This document shows, piece after piece, positions 17,415 to 27,203 of a stretch of DNA of 64,000 nt. A program made the position numbers and the translations under genes. The notes beneath the pieces were generated by a model. The model saw only the letters and a list, made by a program, of their open reading frames with translations, ran no database searches and was not told where the DNA came from. The stretch is taken from assembly GCA_043820105.1 (NCBI GenBank), contig JBDREC010000010.1, positions 1-64,000 on the forward strand, in the 5' to 3' direction. Source of the DNA: Pseudomonadota bacterium. Lineage in GTDB: Bacteria > Bdellovibrionota_F > JAHFAK01 > JBDREC01. Every line of letters starts with the position of its first letter. Position 1 is the first letter of the stretch.

Positions 17415-19883
17415 TTATTTAAAAATAAGGTTAATTAACTTTTCTTTGACATAAATGTGTTTAGCTAAAGTTTTTCCCTCTGAATGCTTTATTACTTTGT
17501 CTTGTTCTAAAGCAGTTTCTTTTATCGCATCTTCAGATGCACTTCTATCAATTTGAAGTTCACCTCTTAATTTGCCATTAACCATTACAGCCAATTTCAT
17601 TGTATCAAGGTGCAAATATTTTTCGTCCCATTTTGGCCAAGCTTCTTTAAAAACTGACTGGCTATTCCCAAGCTTTTCCCAAAGTTCTTCAGATAGGTGA
17701 GGAGCAAAGGGAGCCAAAATCACAACAAAGGTTTTTAAAATATTCTGAAGCAGAAATTTATTTTGCTTATCAACTGGAATGATTCTTAAATATTCTGTTA
17801 ATCCATTATAAAGCTCCATAAAGCGAGCAACAGAAGTATTAAACATAAATCTATCAGTATCAATAGTAGACATCTTAATAGTGTTATGAAAAATTAAAAG
17901 CAGTTTTTTGTCTTCTTCACTAAATTCTTGTTCAACTAAATCTTTAGCAAGCATTGTGTTTTCATTTTCTTCAAAAAGCCTGACTAACCTTTCTGAAAAT
18001 CTTACCATTGCCTTGAACCCAGTGTCATCCCATGGGCCACCATCAATATAATTAAAACCAAAACTCAAGTATAACCTCAATACATCAGAACCATAATCTT
18101 CAACATATTGATCAGGGGAAACAGAGTTACCTTTTGATTTTGACATCTTTTGACCATCAGGACCCAAAACCAAACCTTGATGAGTCAGGCTCGGGAAAGG
18201 TTCTTCAAAATCAATGAAACCAGCATCTTTTAAAGCCATTGTAATAAAACGAGCGTATAATAGATGCATGCAAGCATGCTCTGCGCCACCACAGTATTTG
18301 TCAACTGGAAGCATTTTTTTTGTTATTTCTTTATCAAAAGCGACATCATTAAAAGATGTGCTTGGATACCTTAAAAAATACCATGAAGAACAAACAAAGG
18401 TATCAAGAGTGTCAGGTTCACGAGTTGCTGCTTTTCCGCATTTTGGACAAGTTGTATGCATAAAAGTTTTGCTTGTAGCAAGAGGTGATTCGCCAGTTGG
18501 TTTGAATTCAGCGTCTTCAGGCAAACATACTGGAAGATCTTTTTCAGGGATTGGAACTTCTCCGCAATCTTCACAGTAAACAATTGGTATAGGCGATCCC
18601 CAGTAACGCTGTCTTGAAACTAACCAATCATGAAGTCGGAAATTTATTTTGCCCCGACCGATATCTGAGCCTTCCATGTCCTTTATAATAGCAGGAATCA
18701 TGTCAGTTGACAGCATATCATTATATTTATCTGAATTAATAACTTTTCCAGCCTCTACAAAAGCCTCAGTTAACTCATCTTCAGCTTTTTTACCTTCTTC
18801 TAAAATAACTTTCTTAATTTCTAAATTATATTTTTTGGCAAAGGCAAAATCTCTTTCATCATGAGCAGGAACTGCCATTACAACACCCGTACCATAAGAG
18901 TAAAGAACATAATCACCAACCCAAATTGGAACCTTTTCATTATTCAATGGATTAATTGCATAGGCACCTGTGAAAACTCCAGTCTTTTCATCAGTTGTAG
19001 AAAGTCTATCTATTTCTGATTTTGCTTTTGATTTTTCAATATAAGCCTTAACAGCTTCTTTGTTTTCTTCTTTTGTAATTTTATCAAGCATAGGGTGTTC
19101 TGGAGCAAACGTATTATAAGTTACACCATAAACAGTGTCTGGTCTGGTTGTAAAAACTGTAAATTTTTCACCGGAAGACTCAATTGTAAAATCAATTTCA
19201 GATCCTTCGCTTCTTCCAATCCAGTTTGATTGCATGCTCTTTGTTTTATGTGGCCAATCAAGACCGTCAATTCCATCAAGAAGCCTTTGAGCATAATCAG
19301 TAATTTTAAAAAACCACTGTCTCAAATTTTTCTTTGTAACTAAAGTGTCACAACGTTCACAAGCACCATCATGAACTTGTTCATTTGCTAAAACTGTTTG
19401 GCAATTTGGACACCAATTAACAGGTGCTTCTTTTCTATAAGCAAGTCCTTTTGCATAAAGCTTCAAAAACACCCATTGCGTCCATTTATAATAATCAGGT
19501 TTAGAAGTATCTAGGATATGCTTCCATGTATATGCAGTTCCCATCTTTTTGAACTGCTCAATCATATATTTTACATTTGTTGTGGTTGAATCATTTGGAT
19601 GAACACCCATTTTCACAGCATAATTTTCAGCAGGAAGCCCAAAAGCATCAAAACCCATTGGGAAAAACAATTTTTTGCCAGTCATTAATTGATATCTTGC
19701 CCAAGTATCCATTAATCCATATTGATACCAATGACCCATATGAAGTTTAGCAGCCGAAGGGTAAGGAAACATAACCAAAACATAAAATTTATCATCCGCA
19801 GAATTCACATCAAAATCAAAAACCCCATCTTTTTCCCATTTATCCTGCCATTTTGCTTCAATTTTTTTAAAGTCATGAGCCAT
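17415..19883 (-). CDS. leuS: Leucine--tRNA ligase
   Basis: MFPYPS, HMGH, GFDAFGLPAEN, SRQRYWG, KMSKS; AGGAG RBS before ATG 19883. Confidence 0.97.
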   Translation of the reverse strand: MAHDFKKIEAKWQDKWEKDGVFDFDVNSADDKFYVLVMFPYPSAAKLHMGHWYQYGLMDTWARYQLMTGKKLFFPMGFDAFGLPAENYAVKMGVHPNDSTTTNVKYMIEQFKKMGTAYTWKHILDTSKPDYYKWTQWVFLKLYAKGLAYRKEAPVNWCPNCQTVLANEQVHDGACERCDTLVTKKNLRQWFFKITDYAQRLLDGIDGLDWPHKTKSMQSNWIGRSEGSEIDFTIESSGEKFTVFTTRPDTVYGVTYNTFAPEHPMLDKITKEENKEAVKAYIEKSKAKSEIDRLSTTDEKTGVFTGAYAINPLNNEKVPIWVGDYVLYSYGTGVVMAVPAHDERDFAFAKKYNLEIKKVILEEGKKAEDELTEAFVEAGKVINSDKYNDMLSTDMIPAIIKDMEGSDIGRGKINFRLHDWLVSRQRYWGSPIPIVYCEDCGEVPIPEKDLPVCLPEDAEFKPTGESPLATSKTFMHTTCPKCGKAATREPDTLDTFVCSSWYFLRYPSTSFNDVAFDKEITKKMLPVDKYCGGAEHACMHLLYARFITMALKDAGFIDFEEPFPSLTHQGLVLGPDGQKMSKSKGNSVSPDQYVEDYGSDVLRLYLSFGFNYIDGGPWDDTGFKAMVRFSERLVRLFEENENTMLAKDLVEQEFSEEDKKLLLIFHNTIKMSTIDTDRFMFNTSVARFMELYNGLTEYLRIIPVDKQNKFLLQNILKTFVVILAPFAPHLSEELWEKLGNSQSVFKEAWPKWDEKYLHLDTMKLAVMVNGKLRGELQIDRSASEDAIKETALEQDKVIKHSEGKTLAKHIYVKEKLINLIFK

Positions 19884-19930
19884 GAAATATCTCCTATAAA
19901 ACAGATGTGTTAATAAAAAGAACAATGAGA

Positions 19931-19988
19931 GGTGTTTGGTATTTGGTATTCGGTATTCGGTATTCGGTATTCGGTATTCAGTGTTCAG
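19931..19988. repeat. Heptamer tandem repeat (GGTATTC)n
   Basis: Visible directly, with degenerate flanking units. Confidence 0.9.
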
Positions 19989-19997
19989 GTAAATCCA

Positions 19998-20045
19998 TTG
20001 TTCTCTTGTTCTCTTGTTCTCTTGTTCCCTTGTTCCCTTGTTCCC
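19998..20045. repeat. Octamer tandem repeat (TTGTTCYC)x6
   Basis: Visible directly; a related array is at 31621-31647. Confidence 0.9.
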
Positions 20046-20215
20046 TTTCTTAACTCCAAAATCATCGTTTGTAAATAAAAAGAAAACAACTTTTTTCTTA
20101 TTTCCAGAAACGATTTTAATAATTAAACGAGCTTTCGACAAATGAAATATAAAGAGGCCTCTTAAGCTCTTTAAATAATAGCCTCTTAACAAAAACCTTT
20201 AAACCGTATTCAATG

Positions 20216-20276: not shown

Positions 20277-20840
20277 ATGAAAAAAGTAAAAATAGTTTTA
20301 GCTAGCATCTTAATTTTATTTCTAGTTACATGGTCAATTTGCAAGGCAGAACAAATCGAAAGCTTAAACTTGCAGAATGCTAAGCTACCAGTTGAGATCA
20401 GTCAATGTGTCGAAAACCTAGCCATGGATTATTTAAATGATCTGGCAAGCTGGACAAGATCTTCACTAACTTTCTTGGAAGTTGATGAAGGTTTTAAAAC
20501 ACCAATGAAAGCATCTAAATTAAAAAAAAGAAAAAGCAATTTCGATGCTATTTTAAATTTTGAATCTGATGGAAGGTTTGTTTTATTTGATGATTACGCA
20601 GGAAGAATCAGGGAAGTCTCAATAATTGCCAGTTTAAATAACGTGGGAGTGATAAAAAAGGAAAATGAAATTAAAGGATTAATTTTTGATAAAAAACTAG
20701 GATTAAGCCTGGATATTTTCAGGCAATATAAACCTGAAGAAAAATCAAGATGTATCGTCGGAGAAAACACATCAATTGCTATTACAGGAAAAGAACTTAT
20801 CGAAGGCTGTGGTTTGAGTTATGTTGAGTTGATAGAATAG
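20277..20840 (+). CDS. Hypothetical secreted protein
   Basis: GGAGG RBS; signal peptide ending CKA. Confidence 0.75.
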   Translation: MKKVKIVLASILILFLVTWSICKAEQIESLNLQNAKLPVEISQCVENLAMDYLNDLASWTRSSLTFLEVDEGFKTPMKASKLKKRKSNFDAILNFESDGRFVLFDDYAGRIREVSIIASLNNVGVIKKENEIKGLIFDKKLGLSLDIFRQYKPEEKSRCIVGENTSIAITGKELIEGCGLSYVELIE

Positions 20841-20877: not shown

Positions 20878-21207
20878 TTATAATAATATAACTTGAATAT
20901 GATTGAAAAAAACAAAAACATACATAAAAACTGAGAAATATGAAATAGCGTGAATAAATTTATGCTTTGAGTTTATATAGAGCAAAAAACAACCTAACAT
21001 TGGAATTAAGTTTTTAATATAAATGAATAAAAATAGATCTAAATCTAGCAAAGTTTTCATTAAAGGATTAAGCTCAATTCCAAAACCAGATTTGAGAATA
21101 AAAATAGTGAGAATAATATCAAGAAAGTTAAGGAAAAGAATGATTCTTAATGTTTTTTTAATACTTGTTCTCAATTTAATAACCTCAAAATTAAATTCAA
21201 TATACAT
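20878..21207 (-). CDS. Small membrane protein (DUF5658-like)
   Basis: LNFLDIILT...GIELNPLM...K motif with about 3 TM segments; start uncertain. Confidence 0.6.
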   Translation of the reverse strand: MYIEFNFEVIKLRTSIKKTLRIILFLNFLDIILTIFILKSGFGIELNPLMKTLLDLDLFLFIYIKNLIPMLGCFLLYINSKHKFIHAISYFSVFMYVFVFFNHIQVILL

Positions 21208-21362
21208 ATTTACAAGTTTCGTGCCACAGGGACCCCAAGGCTAAGCGATTGTTATGTTTAGATTAATCTAACTATGAATAACTTATGGAACAGGAAAAAT
21301 GGCGAGACTTTGCTCGTTTTTTTCGTGAATTTGCTCATATGAGAAGTTTTGATTTAGAGACT

Positions 21363-21390
21363 AAAAAAGCCGGCTAACCCTAGCCGGCTT
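21363..21390 (-). terminator. Intrinsic terminator
   Basis: AAGCCGGCTA-GGGT-TAGCCGGCTTTTTT on the minus strand. Confidence 0.85.
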
Positions 21391-21431
21391 ATATATTTCT
21401 TTTTCAAGGAGGAGGAATATGAAAAAGCTAT
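21363..21431 (-). ncRNA. Candidate sigma54-dependent small RNA with anti-SD seed
   Basis: Lies between a TGGCAC-N5-CTGCA promoter and a GC hairpin plus U6; contains CUUUUUCAUAUUCCUCCUCCUU. Confidence 0.6.
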
Positions 21432-21442
21432 TAAGATGCTAT

Positions 21443-21458
21443 TGCAGGAGGCGTGCCA
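21443..21458 (-). promoter_or_regulatory. sigma54 promoter motif
   Basis: TGGCACGCCTCCTGCA on the minus strand. Confidence 0.75.
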
Positions 21459-21707
21459 AAACAACGCATCCCAAATAAACACTTAATTTTAAGACATTAC
21501 AAAACAACGCACAAAAACAGTCTTTGTAGTCGAGACAATATTATCTCTATTAAACAAGGATTATTACTAATCTGTGACATGACTGTCCCAGAAAAAAAAT
21601 GATTAAGATTGGGATGTTTAAAAAAGCTAATATATTGACTAAAATAGTATTAAATGGGACATGAGCGAAACAGTTTGAACTCAGTGTTTAATATTTAGTT
21701 TTTTCCT

Positions 21708-21738
21708 CACTGAATACCAAATACTGAATACCGAATAC
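21708..21738. repeat. Heptamer repeat (GAATACY)n, reverse complement of the 19931 array unit
   Basis: CACTGAATACCAAATACTGAATACCGAATAC. Confidence 0.75.
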
Positions 21739-21768
21739 AATAATAATCGCATAGAAAAGGAGCACCAG

Positions 21769-23978: not shown

Positions 23979-24530
23979 TTAAATATTTTCCTGCAAGTAC
24001 AAGTCCCCAACAACAATACCTTCTACAATAAAGAAATGATCTTTACTTTCAACTGTAAAATTATAAACGACTCCATTATAAGCAAAAGAATTAATCTGCT
24101 TGATTCTCACAACACGGCCATCATATCCAAATAATTCATCTGATAAATTTAAATCTTCAACTAAAACAATATCTCCATTAAATAAAAGTAAAGGATGCTT
24201 TTTTGTTAGCATAATTTTTTTTCCATTATCAAGTTCGATATTTACAATGCTTTTAACTGTAAAAGCCTGACTTTGATATTTTTCAAGTATAGCACTTTCC
24301 TTAAGTGAAAATTCATCAGTGCCAAACACAGGAACAAAAATCGAAAAAGAAGCCATTTCATCAAATAAATCCCCTGCCTTTAAAAATCTTATTTGATCAT
24401 TTTCATTATTCCTTACCATAATTTTGCTGTCTGGGTGAAAACAGCTTGTGTTAATCACAAGCGAATATGCATTTACAAAGATTAAAACTGTAGCCAATAC
24501 AATAGCAAAAAAAACATTTTTAAAATTCAT
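23979..24530 (-). CDS. Secreted stand-alone Hint-domain protein
   Basis: Signal peptide then SCFHPDSKI (block A), LTKKHPLL (block B), VYNFTV...HFFIVEGIVVGD. Confidence 0.8.
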   Translation of the reverse strand: MNFKNVFFAIVLATVLIFVNAYSLVINTSCFHPDSKIMVRNNENDQIRFLKAGDLFDEMASFSIFVPVFGTDEFSLKESAILEKYQSQAFTVKSIVNIELDNGKKIMLTKKHPLLLFNGDIVLVEDLNLSDELFGYDGRVVRIKQINSFAYNGVVYNFTVESKDHFFIVEGIVVGDLYLQENI

Positions 24531-24585: not shown

Positions 24586-24601
24586 AGCAAGCTCCATGCC
24601 A
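24586..24601 (-). promoter_or_regulatory. sigma54 promoter motif
   Basis: TGGCATGGAGCTTGCT on the minus strand, upstream of the Hint gene. Confidence 0.7.
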
Positions 24602-25103: not shown

Positions 25104-25145
25104 AATAAACCAACTCGTATGAGAGGTTTATAAAAATAATATTTT

Positions 25146-25270
25146 GAGATTGTTGATAAATTAGTGGATAGCAAGGCGGTCGATGAAAATTTACTTGAGG
25201 CGTACTACTGTACGTCGAAAGTTAATTTTTAGCGGCCAACGCAGCTAGCCGCTAATTTTGCAACAATCTC
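25146..25270. mobile_element. MITE-like element with about 27-bp terminal inverted repeats
   Basis: GAGATTGTTGATAAATTAGTGGATAGC ... GCTAGCCGCTAATTTTGCAACAATCTC, with internal dyad CGTAC..GTACG. Confidence 0.75.
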
Positions 25271-25377: not shown

Positions 25378-25791
25378 TTGCATAAAAATGATTTTAAAAA
25401 AATCACCAAAAAACTTTTTCATGATATTAATAAACCAATTATTAATGCCTATATGGTCATTAGTACTTGTTATAAATTAATGAACAAGTTAAGTTCCAAT
25501 GGACTAAATGATCTTTTGTCAGAACAATTTACCGAACTTAGAAGAATTACTCAAAAACAATCCTTAAAACTTGAAAATATCTATGATGTTTTAAATCAGC
25601 AAGAAACAAAATATTTAGAAAGCACATATAAAAGATATACGTCTCAATTTTCTTTTTTAAATGATTTAATAACAAATAATAATTTTGATAATCTCCTTTC
25701 TGAAGAGCTTATTAATAAGCTCTCTTCAATAGACAAAGAAAACACCAAATTCGCTTTAAATATTATTAAATCTATCAACGATGATGTTTAA
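25378..25791 (+). CDS. Small helical protein with a histidine-kinase H-box-like motif
   Basis: AAGGAG RBS; LFHDINKPI; no ATPase domain. Confidence 0.55.
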   Translation: MHKNDFKKITKKLFHDINKPIINAYMVISTCYKLMNKLSSNGLNDLLSEQFTELRRITQKQSLKLENIYDVLNQQETKYLESTYKRYTSQFSFLNDLITNNNFDNLLSEELINKLSSIDKENTKFALNIIKSINDDV

Positions 25792-25814: not shown

Positions 25815-27203
25815 ATGGACAAAAAGAAAACAATTTTAGTAATTGATGATGACAATGCTCTTAGAAGATCTATATGCCTAATCTTAGGTGAGCTTTATCA
25901 AACAATAGAAGCTATTGATTATGAATCATCTCTTTCTAAAATTAATAGCTATGAAATTGATTTAGTTATTTTAGACTTAAATTTTGATGAAGAAAAAAAT
26001 GGAATAGATGTCCTGAAATATATTAAATCAAAAGACAAAACTACTCCTATTATAATATTATCATCAATTACAGAAACCGAAAAAGTTGTTGAATGCATTT
26101 CCCTGGGTGCTTTTGATTACATAACAAAATCAGTTGAAACCCTTGAGCATGATCTTTTACTTAGAATTGAAAAAGCACTAAAAACAGCCAAAACCCTTCG
26201 CAGTTTTGAAAGCATGAGAATTGAGTTTAAGGATAAATATGAAATAATTTCTCAAAACAAGATAATCTTAGAGATAATGAAAGAAATACAATACATTGAT
26301 GATATGAATCTTTTAATTGAAGGTGAAACAGGCGTTGGAAAAACCCCCATTGCACGCTATACAAACTCCTGCCTTTCAAATGGTGTAAAACGACCTTTTG
26401 TGAGAGTGAATTGCGCAGGCTTATCAAGAGAAAGACTTCAAGACATATTATTTGGGCACAAGAAAGGTGCGTACACAGGAGCTGAATCTGACCTGCAAGG
26501 CCTTGTAGAACTAGCAAAAGATGGCGACTTATTTCTAGACGAAATTGGTGATTTGAATTTCGAATGCCAGGCCGAACTTTTAATGTTTCTAGATTGTGGT
26601 GAATACCGTCGCTTAGGAGATCCAATTGTTAGACATTCTAATTGCAGAATTATTTCAGCCACAAACTATTCATTAAAAAGAAGGGTTATTGAAGGCAAAT
26701 TTAGACAAGATCTTTATTCAAGGCTTTCGCCATGCAAGGTACGGATTCCCGCCTTAAGAGAAAGAAAAGAAGATATCATTCCAATTATGGAATACTATAT
26801 CATGCAGTTCTGTGGTTTTTTAAAACCCGTGACTACTTCTGTTAAAGATCTTTTTCTAAAAAATGATTGGCTTGAAGGAAATGTTAGAGAACTAAAAGAC
26901 GCGGTTCAATATATGTGTCAAAAATCAAAACAAGCTGAACAAATAAATATAGAACATCTAAGCCCAATTTATTTTTTAGAAAACAAAAATATCGCCAAGC
27001 TAAACTCTCAAGATTTTAACATGCATTCTGTTAAGGAAGACGTTATGATAAAAGGCTTAGACACATATCTTGATGCAATTGAAAGACAGGTGCTTGAAGA
27101 AATATCGCAAGGTGAAAGAAGTATAAGATCCTTAGCAATGAAATTAAATGCAGTTGAAGTTACTTTGTATCGGAAGTTTAAAAAACATGGCCTGACAATT
27201 TAA
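25815..27203 (+). CDS. sigma54-dependent response regulator (NtrC family)
   Basis: Receiver (VIDDD, ILDL), GETGVGKT, LFGHKKGAYTGA, LFLDEIGD, FRQDLYSRL, GNVREL, C-terminal HTH. Confidence 0.93.
   Translation: MDKKKTILVIDDDNALRRSICLILGELYQTIEAIDYESSLSKINSYEIDLVILDLNFDEEKNGIDVLKYIKSKDKTTPIIILSSITETEKVVECISLGAFDYITKSVETLEHDLLLRIEKALKTAKTLRSFESMRIEFKDKYEIISQNKIILEIMKEIQYIDDMNLLIEGETGVGKTPIARYTNSCLSNGVKRPFVRVNCAGLSRERLQDILFGHKKGAYTGAESDLQGLVELAKDGDLFLDEIGDLNFECQAELLMFLDCGEYRRLGDPIVRHSNCRIISATNYSLKRRVIEGKFRQDLYSRLSPCKVRIPALRERKEDIIPIMEYYIMQFCGFLKPVTTSVKDLFLKNDWLEGNVRELKDAVQYMCQKSKQAEQINIEHLSPIYFLENKNIAKLNSQDFNMHSVKEDVMIKGLDTYLDAIERQVLEEISQGERSIRSLAMKLNAVEVTLYRKFKKHGLTI

Follow-up and report, generated by a model that had tools for sequence, protein, structure and literature searches.

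The stretch analyzed here (the window) is C10:1-64000, the first 64,000 nucleotides (nt) of a contig of genome G000, an assembly of 3.81 Mb in 113 contigs with 32% G+C. Its minus strand carries, between positions 21363 and 21458, a -24/-12 promoter element of the sigma-54 type, a short body complementary to a translation start, and a Rho-independent terminator (Table 1). Judged from their sequences, the promoter, the conserved 5' body and the intrinsic terminator form one unit, and the interval very probably encodes, as a gene standing on its own, a regulatory RNA about 70 nt long. That this small RNA (sRNA) depends on sigma-54 and represses translation by pairing to the Shine-Dalgarno (SD) sequence and the AUG of its targets is the overall reading we favor, with less assurance than the gene itself, because the gene call is well supported but the mechanism is plausible and rests on prediction.

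Table 1. Positions of the sRNA gene, its parts, its relatives in G000 and other recurrent elements (positions without a contig name are those of the window)
Feature	Position	Strand	Basis or remark
-24/-12 promoter element TGGCACGCCTCCTGCA (GG-N10-GC)	21443..21458	-	exact pattern match
Predicted sRNA transcript, ~69-71 nt	21363..21433	-	covariance-model score 87.6 bits
Hairpin 1: 8-bp A-U-rich stem CUUUUUCA/UGAAAAAG, -5.9 kcal/mol, 13-nt loop UAUUCCUCCUCCU	21399..21427	-	predicted fold
Seed: CAU (anti-AUG, 21421-21419), AUU, CCUCCUCC (anti-SD, 21415-21408)	21408..21421	-	sequence
Rho-independent terminator: hairpin AAGCCGGCTAGGGTTAGCCGGCTT (21390-21367), 10-bp stem (6 G-C), 4-nt loop, U6	21363..21390	-	
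Open reading frame (ORF) of 19 amino acids (aa), MKKLLRCYCRRRAKTTHPK	21419..21478	+	judged non-gene
Family A copies	C10:21363-21433(-), C80:20913-20986(+), C24:8206-8275(+), C90:207241-207306(+), C30:52559-52633(-)		
Family B, six G000 copies	C98:6182(+), C105:229(-), C105:542(-), C10:114454(-), C1:16575(-), C90:46304(+)		
Further sigma-54 motif plus terminator units	C12:77969(-), C28:31804(-), C54:21406(+), C68:26574(+), C77:7678(-), C102:16508(-)		
Cassette shared by the top three predicted targets	C39:64946-65060, C88:3374-3490, C88:1047-1160	-	
Repeat resembling a miniature inverted-repeat transposable element (MITE)	25135-25270, C90:207103-207238, C19:22636-22760, C84:9432-9561		
Tandem repeats of 7-8 nt	21700-21740, 19930-20060; 5' untranslated regions (UTRs) of many other genes, among them some on C75, C103, C68, C46, C12		

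The consensus of sigma-54 promoters is TGGCAC-N5-TTGC, with GG at -24, GC at -12 and a fixed spacing between them. The first-pass annotation of this DNA had reported such a motif on the minus strand, and TGGCACGCCTCCTGCA is found there base for base at 21458-21443, with a C replacing the first T of TTGC. It is one of the four exact matches to TGGCACNNNNNYTGCW in the window. When up to one mismatch was allowed, 15 matches to the -24/-12 pattern were counted in the window; shuffled sequences (n = 100) gave 2.84 on average and 9 at most. Over the whole genome, TGG[CT]A[CT]-N5-NTGC[AT] was found 290 times versus 7 for the reversed pattern; 219 of the 290 motifs were intergenic by crude gene calls, and 178 of these lay at most 300 nt from the start of a co-oriented gene. 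The genome carries one copy of rpoN (Sigma54_DBD, 211 bits) and 33 matches to Sigma54_activat, 31 of them scoring at least 98 bits. Ten sigma-54 activator domains (e.g., C10:100023-100526) are located in open frames of 1156 to 1993 aa, an unusual length for members of this family.

Placed by the usual distance from the -12 element, the 5' end of the RNA would lie near 21431-21433. The body, UAAUAGCUUUUUCAUAUUCCUCCUCCUUGAAAAAGAAAUAUAUA, begins about 12 nt past TGGCACGCCTCCTGCA on the minus strand and is followed by the hairpin AAGCCGGCUAGGGUUAGCCGGCUU and six U, the last at 21363. This agrees with the span of about 70 nt ending in a hairpin and six T that had been described from the letters alone: the 10 pairs are present at 21390-21367, and the T run extends to 21363. 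ViennaRNA predicted two hairpins for the 71-nt RNA, with a fold energy of -23 kcal/mol (z = -3.8) that none of 200 shuffled sequences matched. The predicted arms of hairpin 1 are CUUUUUCA (the complement of UGAAAAAG) and UUGAAAAAG, and its loop displays AUAUUCCUCCUCC, where CCUCCUU is the 3' tail of the genome's own 16S rRNA (GGATCACCTCCTTTCT, contig C90). In the fold of this RNA and its closest relatives (family A), the anti-SD sequence lies inside the loop, and the CAU lies at the border between stem and loop. The hairpin is weak, with -5.9 kcal/mol in the window copy and -2.8 in that of genome G001. The body had been presented as the complement of an SD sequence followed by ATG-Lys-Lys. The corresponding plus-strand sequence is there (21406-21427, AAGGAGGAGGAATATGAAAAAG), but part of the complement to ATG-Lys-Lys also serves as a stem arm, since CUUUUUCA pairs within the 8-bp hairpin.

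Family A comprises five copies in G000 and one in each of G001 and G002, two genomes of the same order. All five G000 copies have AGCTTTTTCA(T/A)ATTCCTCCTCCTTGAAAA in common, and those of C10 (the window copy), C80 and C24 additionally share TGGCAC-N5-NTGCAATAGCAT(C/A)TTAAT, so that the promoter motif of the C80 and C24 paralogs stands at the matching distance from the core. Similarity among these three copies has a sharp onset at TGGCAC, the -24 element, and stops short of the terminator. Four distinct hairpin sequences are found 3' of the five copies (those of C10 and C90 being nearly alike), every one with a T run on the same strand. More broadly, a T run is present on the RNA strand in 10 of 11 genes (five of family A, four of family B, described below, and that of G002); the G001 copy ends in ...CCCTTT, a weak U run, and the C1 copy of family B was not scored as well folded. 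The terminator stems are mostly copy specific in sequence, and three terminator pairs change on both sides. When 11 genes were aligned, the promoters showed an invariant TGG and TG and variable spacers.

The phylum was sampled by four genomes (G000 to G003), all of them multi-contig and two with public records titled metagenome-assembled, and the family is present in three of the four. The 30-nt core is 100% identical in G000, G001 and G002, while the RsmH proteins of the other genomes are only 43% identical to that of G000. The G001 and G002 promoters, TGGTATGGAAATTGCA and TGGTATAGGAATTGCA (TGGTAT-N5-TTGCA), stand at the same distance from the core as in G000, whereas 3' of the core these two copies contain an additional small hairpin and end in a different terminator. 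A covariance model of the family found five copies in G000 and no more, one in G001 and one in G002, and no family A copy in the same-class genome G003 (86% complete); the model fits its own training sequences by construction, so that this search adds only the absence of further copies. An exact scan for the core in 185,579 species genomes gave four matches: the G001 contig, the G002 contig and two others (Roseibacillus and a metagenome-assembled genome of Clostridiaceae), which have no promoter or terminator nearby and are not relatives. The same scan of metagenome contigs gave five matches, two G002-like and three unrelated. Weak DNA matches (E values of 0.001 to 0.009) in four unrelated genomes were also rejected, as CCTCCTCC is absent from three of them and the fourth, in G005, is a gene start. 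In G001 (contig C99) and G002 (contig C26), the space between the upstream gene and the sRNA contains, about 100-190 nt before the sRNA promoter, a conserved block, TTGACAT...TATGGA...GATGGGGGC.TAA.TGTCTC...GACAAAG.CTACTCAC, which has no Rfam match and may be another small RNA.

A scan of the genome for -24/-12 motifs with a terminator within 170 nt and no gene start, together with blastn and pattern searches, revealed a second family, B, of six copies in G000. One of these, at C10:114454, is located on the same contig as the window, beyond its end. Most copies read TGGCAC-N5-NTG(C/A)-AATAGTAT(C/A)TTAATAGTTTCATAATATG(C/T)(T/C)CCCC(T/C)AA and have individual terminators; the exceptions are the C1 copy, which has ...ATATACGCCCCCC, and the copies C105:542 and C90:46304, where the leader has diverged. 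The 20 nt nearest the promoter can be aligned with family A, and the seed is GUUUCAUAAUAUG(C/U)(U/C)CCCC. Five of the six RNAs fold more stably than their shuffles (z = -3.1 to -7.5), and the 5' end of about 25 nt is unpaired in four of the six minimum-free-energy folds and in five of the six centroids. None was found in G001-G003. Family B keeps the CAU and a C-rich run at the SD-to-AUG distance without a hairpin, which implies that the anti-start-codon element is conserved for its own sake. The design proposed by the first-pass annotation, a complement to SD plus AUG, is in this way independently backed by a family with a CAU, a C-rich anti-SD and an unstructured 5' end; the backing extends to the CAU and the C-rich run, but the hairpin is absent and the anti-SD, CUCCCC, is a different one. 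Subsets of the family B copies have the motif TTTAACATAAAA or TTTGAAAAAAAGAATTT in common upstream. Six further units of G000, with a sigma-54 motif followed by a terminator within 170 nt and no ORF of at least 80 aa, are candidate sigma-54-dependent small RNAs or small-protein genes; those of C12 and C68 have "tgtatttttagccataa.caaag" in common.

Taken together, the promoter, the short noncoding body and the terminator make up a stand-alone unit that relatives have conserved, as is typical of trans-encoded base-pairing sRNAs. The sRNA of the first-pass annotation is upheld by comparison as a stand-alone minus-strand gene with a sigma-54-type promoter, paralogs, orthologs, variable terminators and no conserved ORF, and the repression of secreted-protein genes that came with it is an in silico result. 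Putative regulators are encoded close to two of the copies. The C80 copy lies 1.5 kb downstream of genes for a hybrid histidine kinase and an NtrC-type activator (C80:15943-19348, the activator at 17867-19348), in the order kinase, activator, ORF of 420 aa with no assigned function, sRNA. In the window, a gene for an NtrC-type activator (25815-27203, plus strand) lies 4.4 kb from the sRNA. Directly before that activator gene, at 25378-25791 on the plus strand, a protein of 137 aa without a Pfam match is encoded; its LFHDINKP resembles the C-terminal HHDINKP of the C80 hybrid kinase, an arrangement like that of an Hpt-plus-activator pair.

To predict targets, the hairpin-1 sequence was paired with the region from -35 to +25 of 3047 ORFs, with target and sRNA structure ignored. 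As controls (n = 32), CCUCCUCC was kept and the flanks were shuffled. Native hairpin 1 gave 21 starts at -25 kcal/mol or lower (0-10 in controls) and 69 at -22 or lower (9-32 in controls), counts that none of the 32 controls reached. The three best targets by loop-duplex energy are C39:63569-64951 (MORN repeats), C88:2540-3379 and C88:315-1052, where the predicted pairing consists of 10 bp, a 3-nt bulge and 12-13 bp, runs from the SD to codon 3 and amounts to about -30 kcal/mol. These three secreted-protein genes differ in their N-termini, one matching MORN and two matching no Pfam family, and each is preceded by a shared cassette with an ATAAATG box, a sigma-54 motif and a 5' UTR of about 60 nt ending in TTAAGGAGGAAATGGGATATG. 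The sequence GGAGGATATTAAAAAATGAAAAAAG, cited by the first-pass annotation for comparison, does precede and span the ATG at 20277; as an example of a target, the gene that begins there fared poorly, with a rank of only 495 among 3047. Another potential site is found in rsmH (C95:82665-82711, minus strand, at the gene start after mraZ), which carries TTTTCAAGGAGGAGG and TTCAAGGAGGAGG 32 nt apart. The sites fall in two reading frames and use G-rich codons in a genome of 32% G+C; near the start, two copies of TTCAAGGAGGAGG in different frames are complementary to the sRNA in its loop and 3' arm. Outside the sRNA genes, AGGAGGAGG occurs only 16 times in the genome. Nevertheless, rsmH was rejected as a conserved target, since the sites are missing from its G001, G002 and G003 orthologs.

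Several observations weigh against a sigma-54-dependent repressor that pairs to translation starts. The C90 copy has the 136-nt palindromic repeat in place of a promoter, the C30 copy has no -24/-12 motif and only weak sigma-70-like matches, and two family B copies carry TTGA for TTGC at -12. Upstream of the three sigma-54-bearing A copies, the search for an activator site gave no shared 10-mer. Hairpin 1 lacks covariation support, since six of its eight pairs are invariant in eight sequences and none speaks for or against the stem. The Hfq model had one match, whose score of 25.6 bits falls below the cut-off of 27 bits. On the side of the targets, the 3058 ORFs were called crudely, with starts chosen partly by their SD sequence, and the duplex energies leave structure aside. 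The tested pattern gave no counterpart of the top three targets in G001 and G002, where the rsmH sites have none either. The single best duplex (-29.5 kcal/mol) was beaten in 5 of the 32 controls; since the native counts exceed the controls and the best energy does not, the flanks appear to be tuned to starts generally rather than to one target, and in these duplex models they fit translation starts in general (spacer, AUG, AAA). Finally, signal-peptide-like N-termini, assigned by a heuristic, make up 26.7% of all 3047 genes, 48-59.5% of the top 25-200 targets of family A, 16-33% of those of the generic 16S tail and 76-84% of the top 25 of the family B seeds, but this enrichment is partly circular, because signal-peptide-like proteins begin with AUG-AAA, and it largely follows AUG-AAA complementarity. 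The repression of many secreted-protein mRNAs, as first put forward, is supported in silico by an enrichment that partly reflects the way such genes begin. A sigma-70 promoter TTGACA-15-TATACT at the C30 copy was considered and dropped, as the scan does not score it and gives only TTGATT-18-CATAAT (9/12).

In the mechanism that we propose, sigma-54 polymerase and one or more of the about 31 NtrC-type activators would make the RNA upon a signal. The pyrimidine loop UUCCUCCUCCUU, which matches the 16S 3' tail, would touch the SD sequence of a target mRNA. Pairing would next take in UUUUUCAU, the A-U arm of the weak stem, so that the AUG and the Lys codons behind it become covered. With the start covered, the 30S subunit would be blocked and translation reduced. 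It would prefer mRNAs in which a strong SD is followed at short distance by AUG-AAA, and exported proteins are frequent in this class; among single genes, the three sigma-54-driven secreted-protein genes with the common 5' UTR would be the likeliest targets. We also entertain, as a speculation that we think unlikely, that the eleven siblings (5 A and 6 B) act as a switch with many inputs and one output, in which various enhancer-binding proteins fire their own copies, every copy bears an imitation of the ribosomal anti-SD fused to an anti-AUG, and the translation of exported proteins is throttled globally. If true, any of several signals would apply a secretome-wide translational brake built on the 16S tail sequence, and the presence of sigma-54-driven secreted proteins among the throttled ones would constitute a feed-forward loop.

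The most serious competitor accepts the sigma-54 sRNA and gives it another action: it could titrate an RNA-binding protein, serve as an SD-like decoy or sponge, or pair within coding regions, as in rsmH, for decay. The core of 30 nt, including both stem arms, is invariant across divergent genomes, which exceeds what pairing to varied SD sequences needs; rsmH carries its two sites at 32 nt, complementary to loop and 3' arm; and G001 and G002, with a single copy each, have no strong target by the tested pattern. Nevertheless, family B, which has no hairpin, retains a CAU correctly spaced from its anti-SD, as would be expected if translation starts are paired; the rsmH sites are missing in the G001 and G002 orthologs, and no candidate binding protein was identified. 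We regard another action as rather unlikely. By contrast, we give hardly any credence to a small plus-strand protein (MKKLL...), with the -24/-12 motif being merely codons. A strong SD, AAGGAGGAGG, is well spaced before the plus-strand ATG, the frame is open in all seven family A genes, and MKKLL(R/I)CYC is common to three paralogs. However, the frames that lie opposite the seven A genes have 19, 32, 77, 21, 34, 25 and 31 codons, do not share their stops and have only MKKL in common; that of C30 starts with TTG instead of ATG. In two family B copies the frame ends after three codons (MKH*, MKR*), with promoter, seed and terminator intact, and these short frames together with the sharing of only MKKL lead us to reject coding. 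The differences between paralogs are nonsynonymous (R/I, C/Y, RRR/TRC/IRC), and the hairpin and T run are oriented for the minus strand, with no evident plus-strand promoter. The 19-aa product, which the first-pass annotation had named as the outcome that would overturn its proposal, is thus dismissed by comparison.

An sRNA that represses in trans must also be weighed against a leader or attenuator acting in cis on a same-strand downstream gene, here the DUF5658 gene (20878-21207). Co-oriented genes do follow three of the five A copies (DUF5658 in C10, a 559-aa ORF in C24, a MORN_2 protein in C30), and two of the four DUF5658 genes of the genome adjoin A copies. On the other hand, the gene next to the C80 copy and that next to the C90 copy run toward the sRNA, which hence is not a leader there, the downstream genes are mutually unrelated, and the DUF5658 gene of C30 (C30:52755-53306, plus strand) is divergent rather than downstream. 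The next gene downstream on the G002-type contig L023 is a tRNA-Ala, with a partial tRNA also at the G002 contig end, and in the window a separate sigma-54-like motif, at 21226-21211, belongs to the DUF5658 gene. A cis-acting element is therefore improbable in our opinion. A selfish or decaying MITE-like repeat without function, finally, would account for several dispersed copies in a genome that has short mobile-looking repeats, but the copies lack both terminal inverted repeats and conserved ends, their 3' parts differ yet always form a terminator, and between two families within the order the core shows 100% conservation; the chance that this is what they are seems to us very slight.

The surroundings of the gene deserve a brief description. 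The DUF5658 membrane-protein gene (minus strand) stands in tandem with the sRNA; its motif, TGGCACGAAACTTGTA (21211-21226, minus strand), overlaps the first ATG, which makes the TTG start 11 codons later more likely. Another DUF5658 gene (C46:13751-13993) has a perfect TGGCACAGCTCTTGCT. At 23979-24530 on the minus strand, the window encodes a secreted protein of 183 aa that is Hint/intein-like (below Pfam cut-offs), preceded by the sigma-54-like motif TGGCATGGAGCTTGCT (24586-24601, minus strand). Four copies of the palindromic MITE-like repeat are present in G000; it is about 136 nt long and bounded by inverted repeats of about 25 nt at its termini, and the copy of C90 ends exactly at the expected promoter site of the family A copy. 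Tandem repeats of 7-8 nt (GAATACC/GAATACT, GAACAAG, CTTACCA, CTTACGA) are found just upstream of many ribosome-binding sites.

Sigma-54 requires signal-activated ATPases. With about 290 motifs and about 31 activators in this genome, posttranscriptional branches of the kind predicted here would bear on the control of many secreted proteins. These RNAs would be the first predicted riboregulators for a nearly unstudied phylum and a new Rfam family, and the three genes with a common sigma-54 promoter and 5' UTR provide concrete predicted target pairs.

The Rfam search suggested in the first-pass annotation was run and returned zero families at gathering score across the whole window. At E values up to 10, the seven loci gave only subthreshold look-alikes, including ar14, MicF, sau-63 and anti-hemB. 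Membership in ar14 was rejected, as the best score was 32.9 bits versus a gathering threshold of 58.8 bits; in that alignment, one CCUCCUCC loop and the terminator fall on the transcript, and the first hairpin of the model falls on the promoter. The cuckoo RNAs of Alphaproteobacteria (ar14/NfeR1, RSs0680/CcsR) are described as multicopy, with CCUCCUCCC in two to four adjacent hairpin loops (PMC4615179), and NfeR1 as having a sigma-70 promoter (PMC10746234); the open-access text searched for a sigma-54-driven CCUCCUCC RNA yields only NfeR1. The likeness lies in an anti-SD of the CCUCCUCC type in hairpin loops, several copies and variable stems, whereas here a single hairpin bears UUCCUCCUCCUU next to an anti-AUG, and the promoter motif is of the sigma-54 type. 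The cuckoo architecture was rejected too, since one hairpin (loop UAUUCCUCCUCCU) plus terminator is found instead of the two to four adjacent CCUCCUCCC hairpins.

Two other groups of sRNAs use the sigma factor predicted here. Transcription of the quorum regulatory RNAs Qrr1-5 is driven by a response regulator of the NtrC type, to which a phosphorelay passes its signal. The seven loci gave no match to Qrr even at E values up to 10, there is no similarity in sequence or structure, and Qrr does not use a generic anti-SD/anti-AUG as its seed. The Vibrio genomes have four to five sigma-54-dependent Qrr siblings each (PMC2632942, PMC8043402, PMC10162802). The resemblance consists of homologous sRNA siblings with sigma-54 promoters; here, the C80 and window copies lie near NtrC-type activators. 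CJnc230 of Campylobacter jejuni is an RpoN-dependent RNA of 98 nt with a single-stranded anti-SD CCUU, single copy, downstream of flgE and dependent on the RpoN-driven expression of flgE (PMC11187230). Like it, the RNA predicted here is a putative RpoN-type sRNA with an anti-SD, but the genes found here are stand-alone, with their own -24/-12 motif, in an 11-member family.

A related design is that of the csRNAs (cia-dependent small RNAs) of Streptococcus, which are sibling sRNAs under one response regulator with anti-SD and anti-AUG sequences, CAU being present in 53 of 61 (PMC3091779). The common points are several highly similar siblings per genome, one signal-transduction system, complementarity to SD and AUG, and then a terminator. 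A pairing region of this type, directed against the translation initiation region, is predicted in family A as CAU-AUU-CCUCCUCC and in family B as the unpaired 5' end. In contrast, the csRNAs belong to Firmicutes and have CiaR-dependent promoters of the sigma-70 type, and their pairing region is unpaired between two stem-loops, whereas here the promoters are -24/-12, the phylum is unrelated, no sequence similarity is found, and family A carries its anti-SD in a hairpin loop. Although these four groups come nearest to it in layout and function, by sequence and defining architecture the RNA is not a member of the csRNAs, the cuckoo RNAs, Qrr or CJnc230: the kind of RNA is known, and the family is new. 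Sibling sRNAs with an anti-SD and an anti-AUG would thus be a design that has arisen again beyond Firmicutes and Alphaproteobacteria, here wired to sigma-54.

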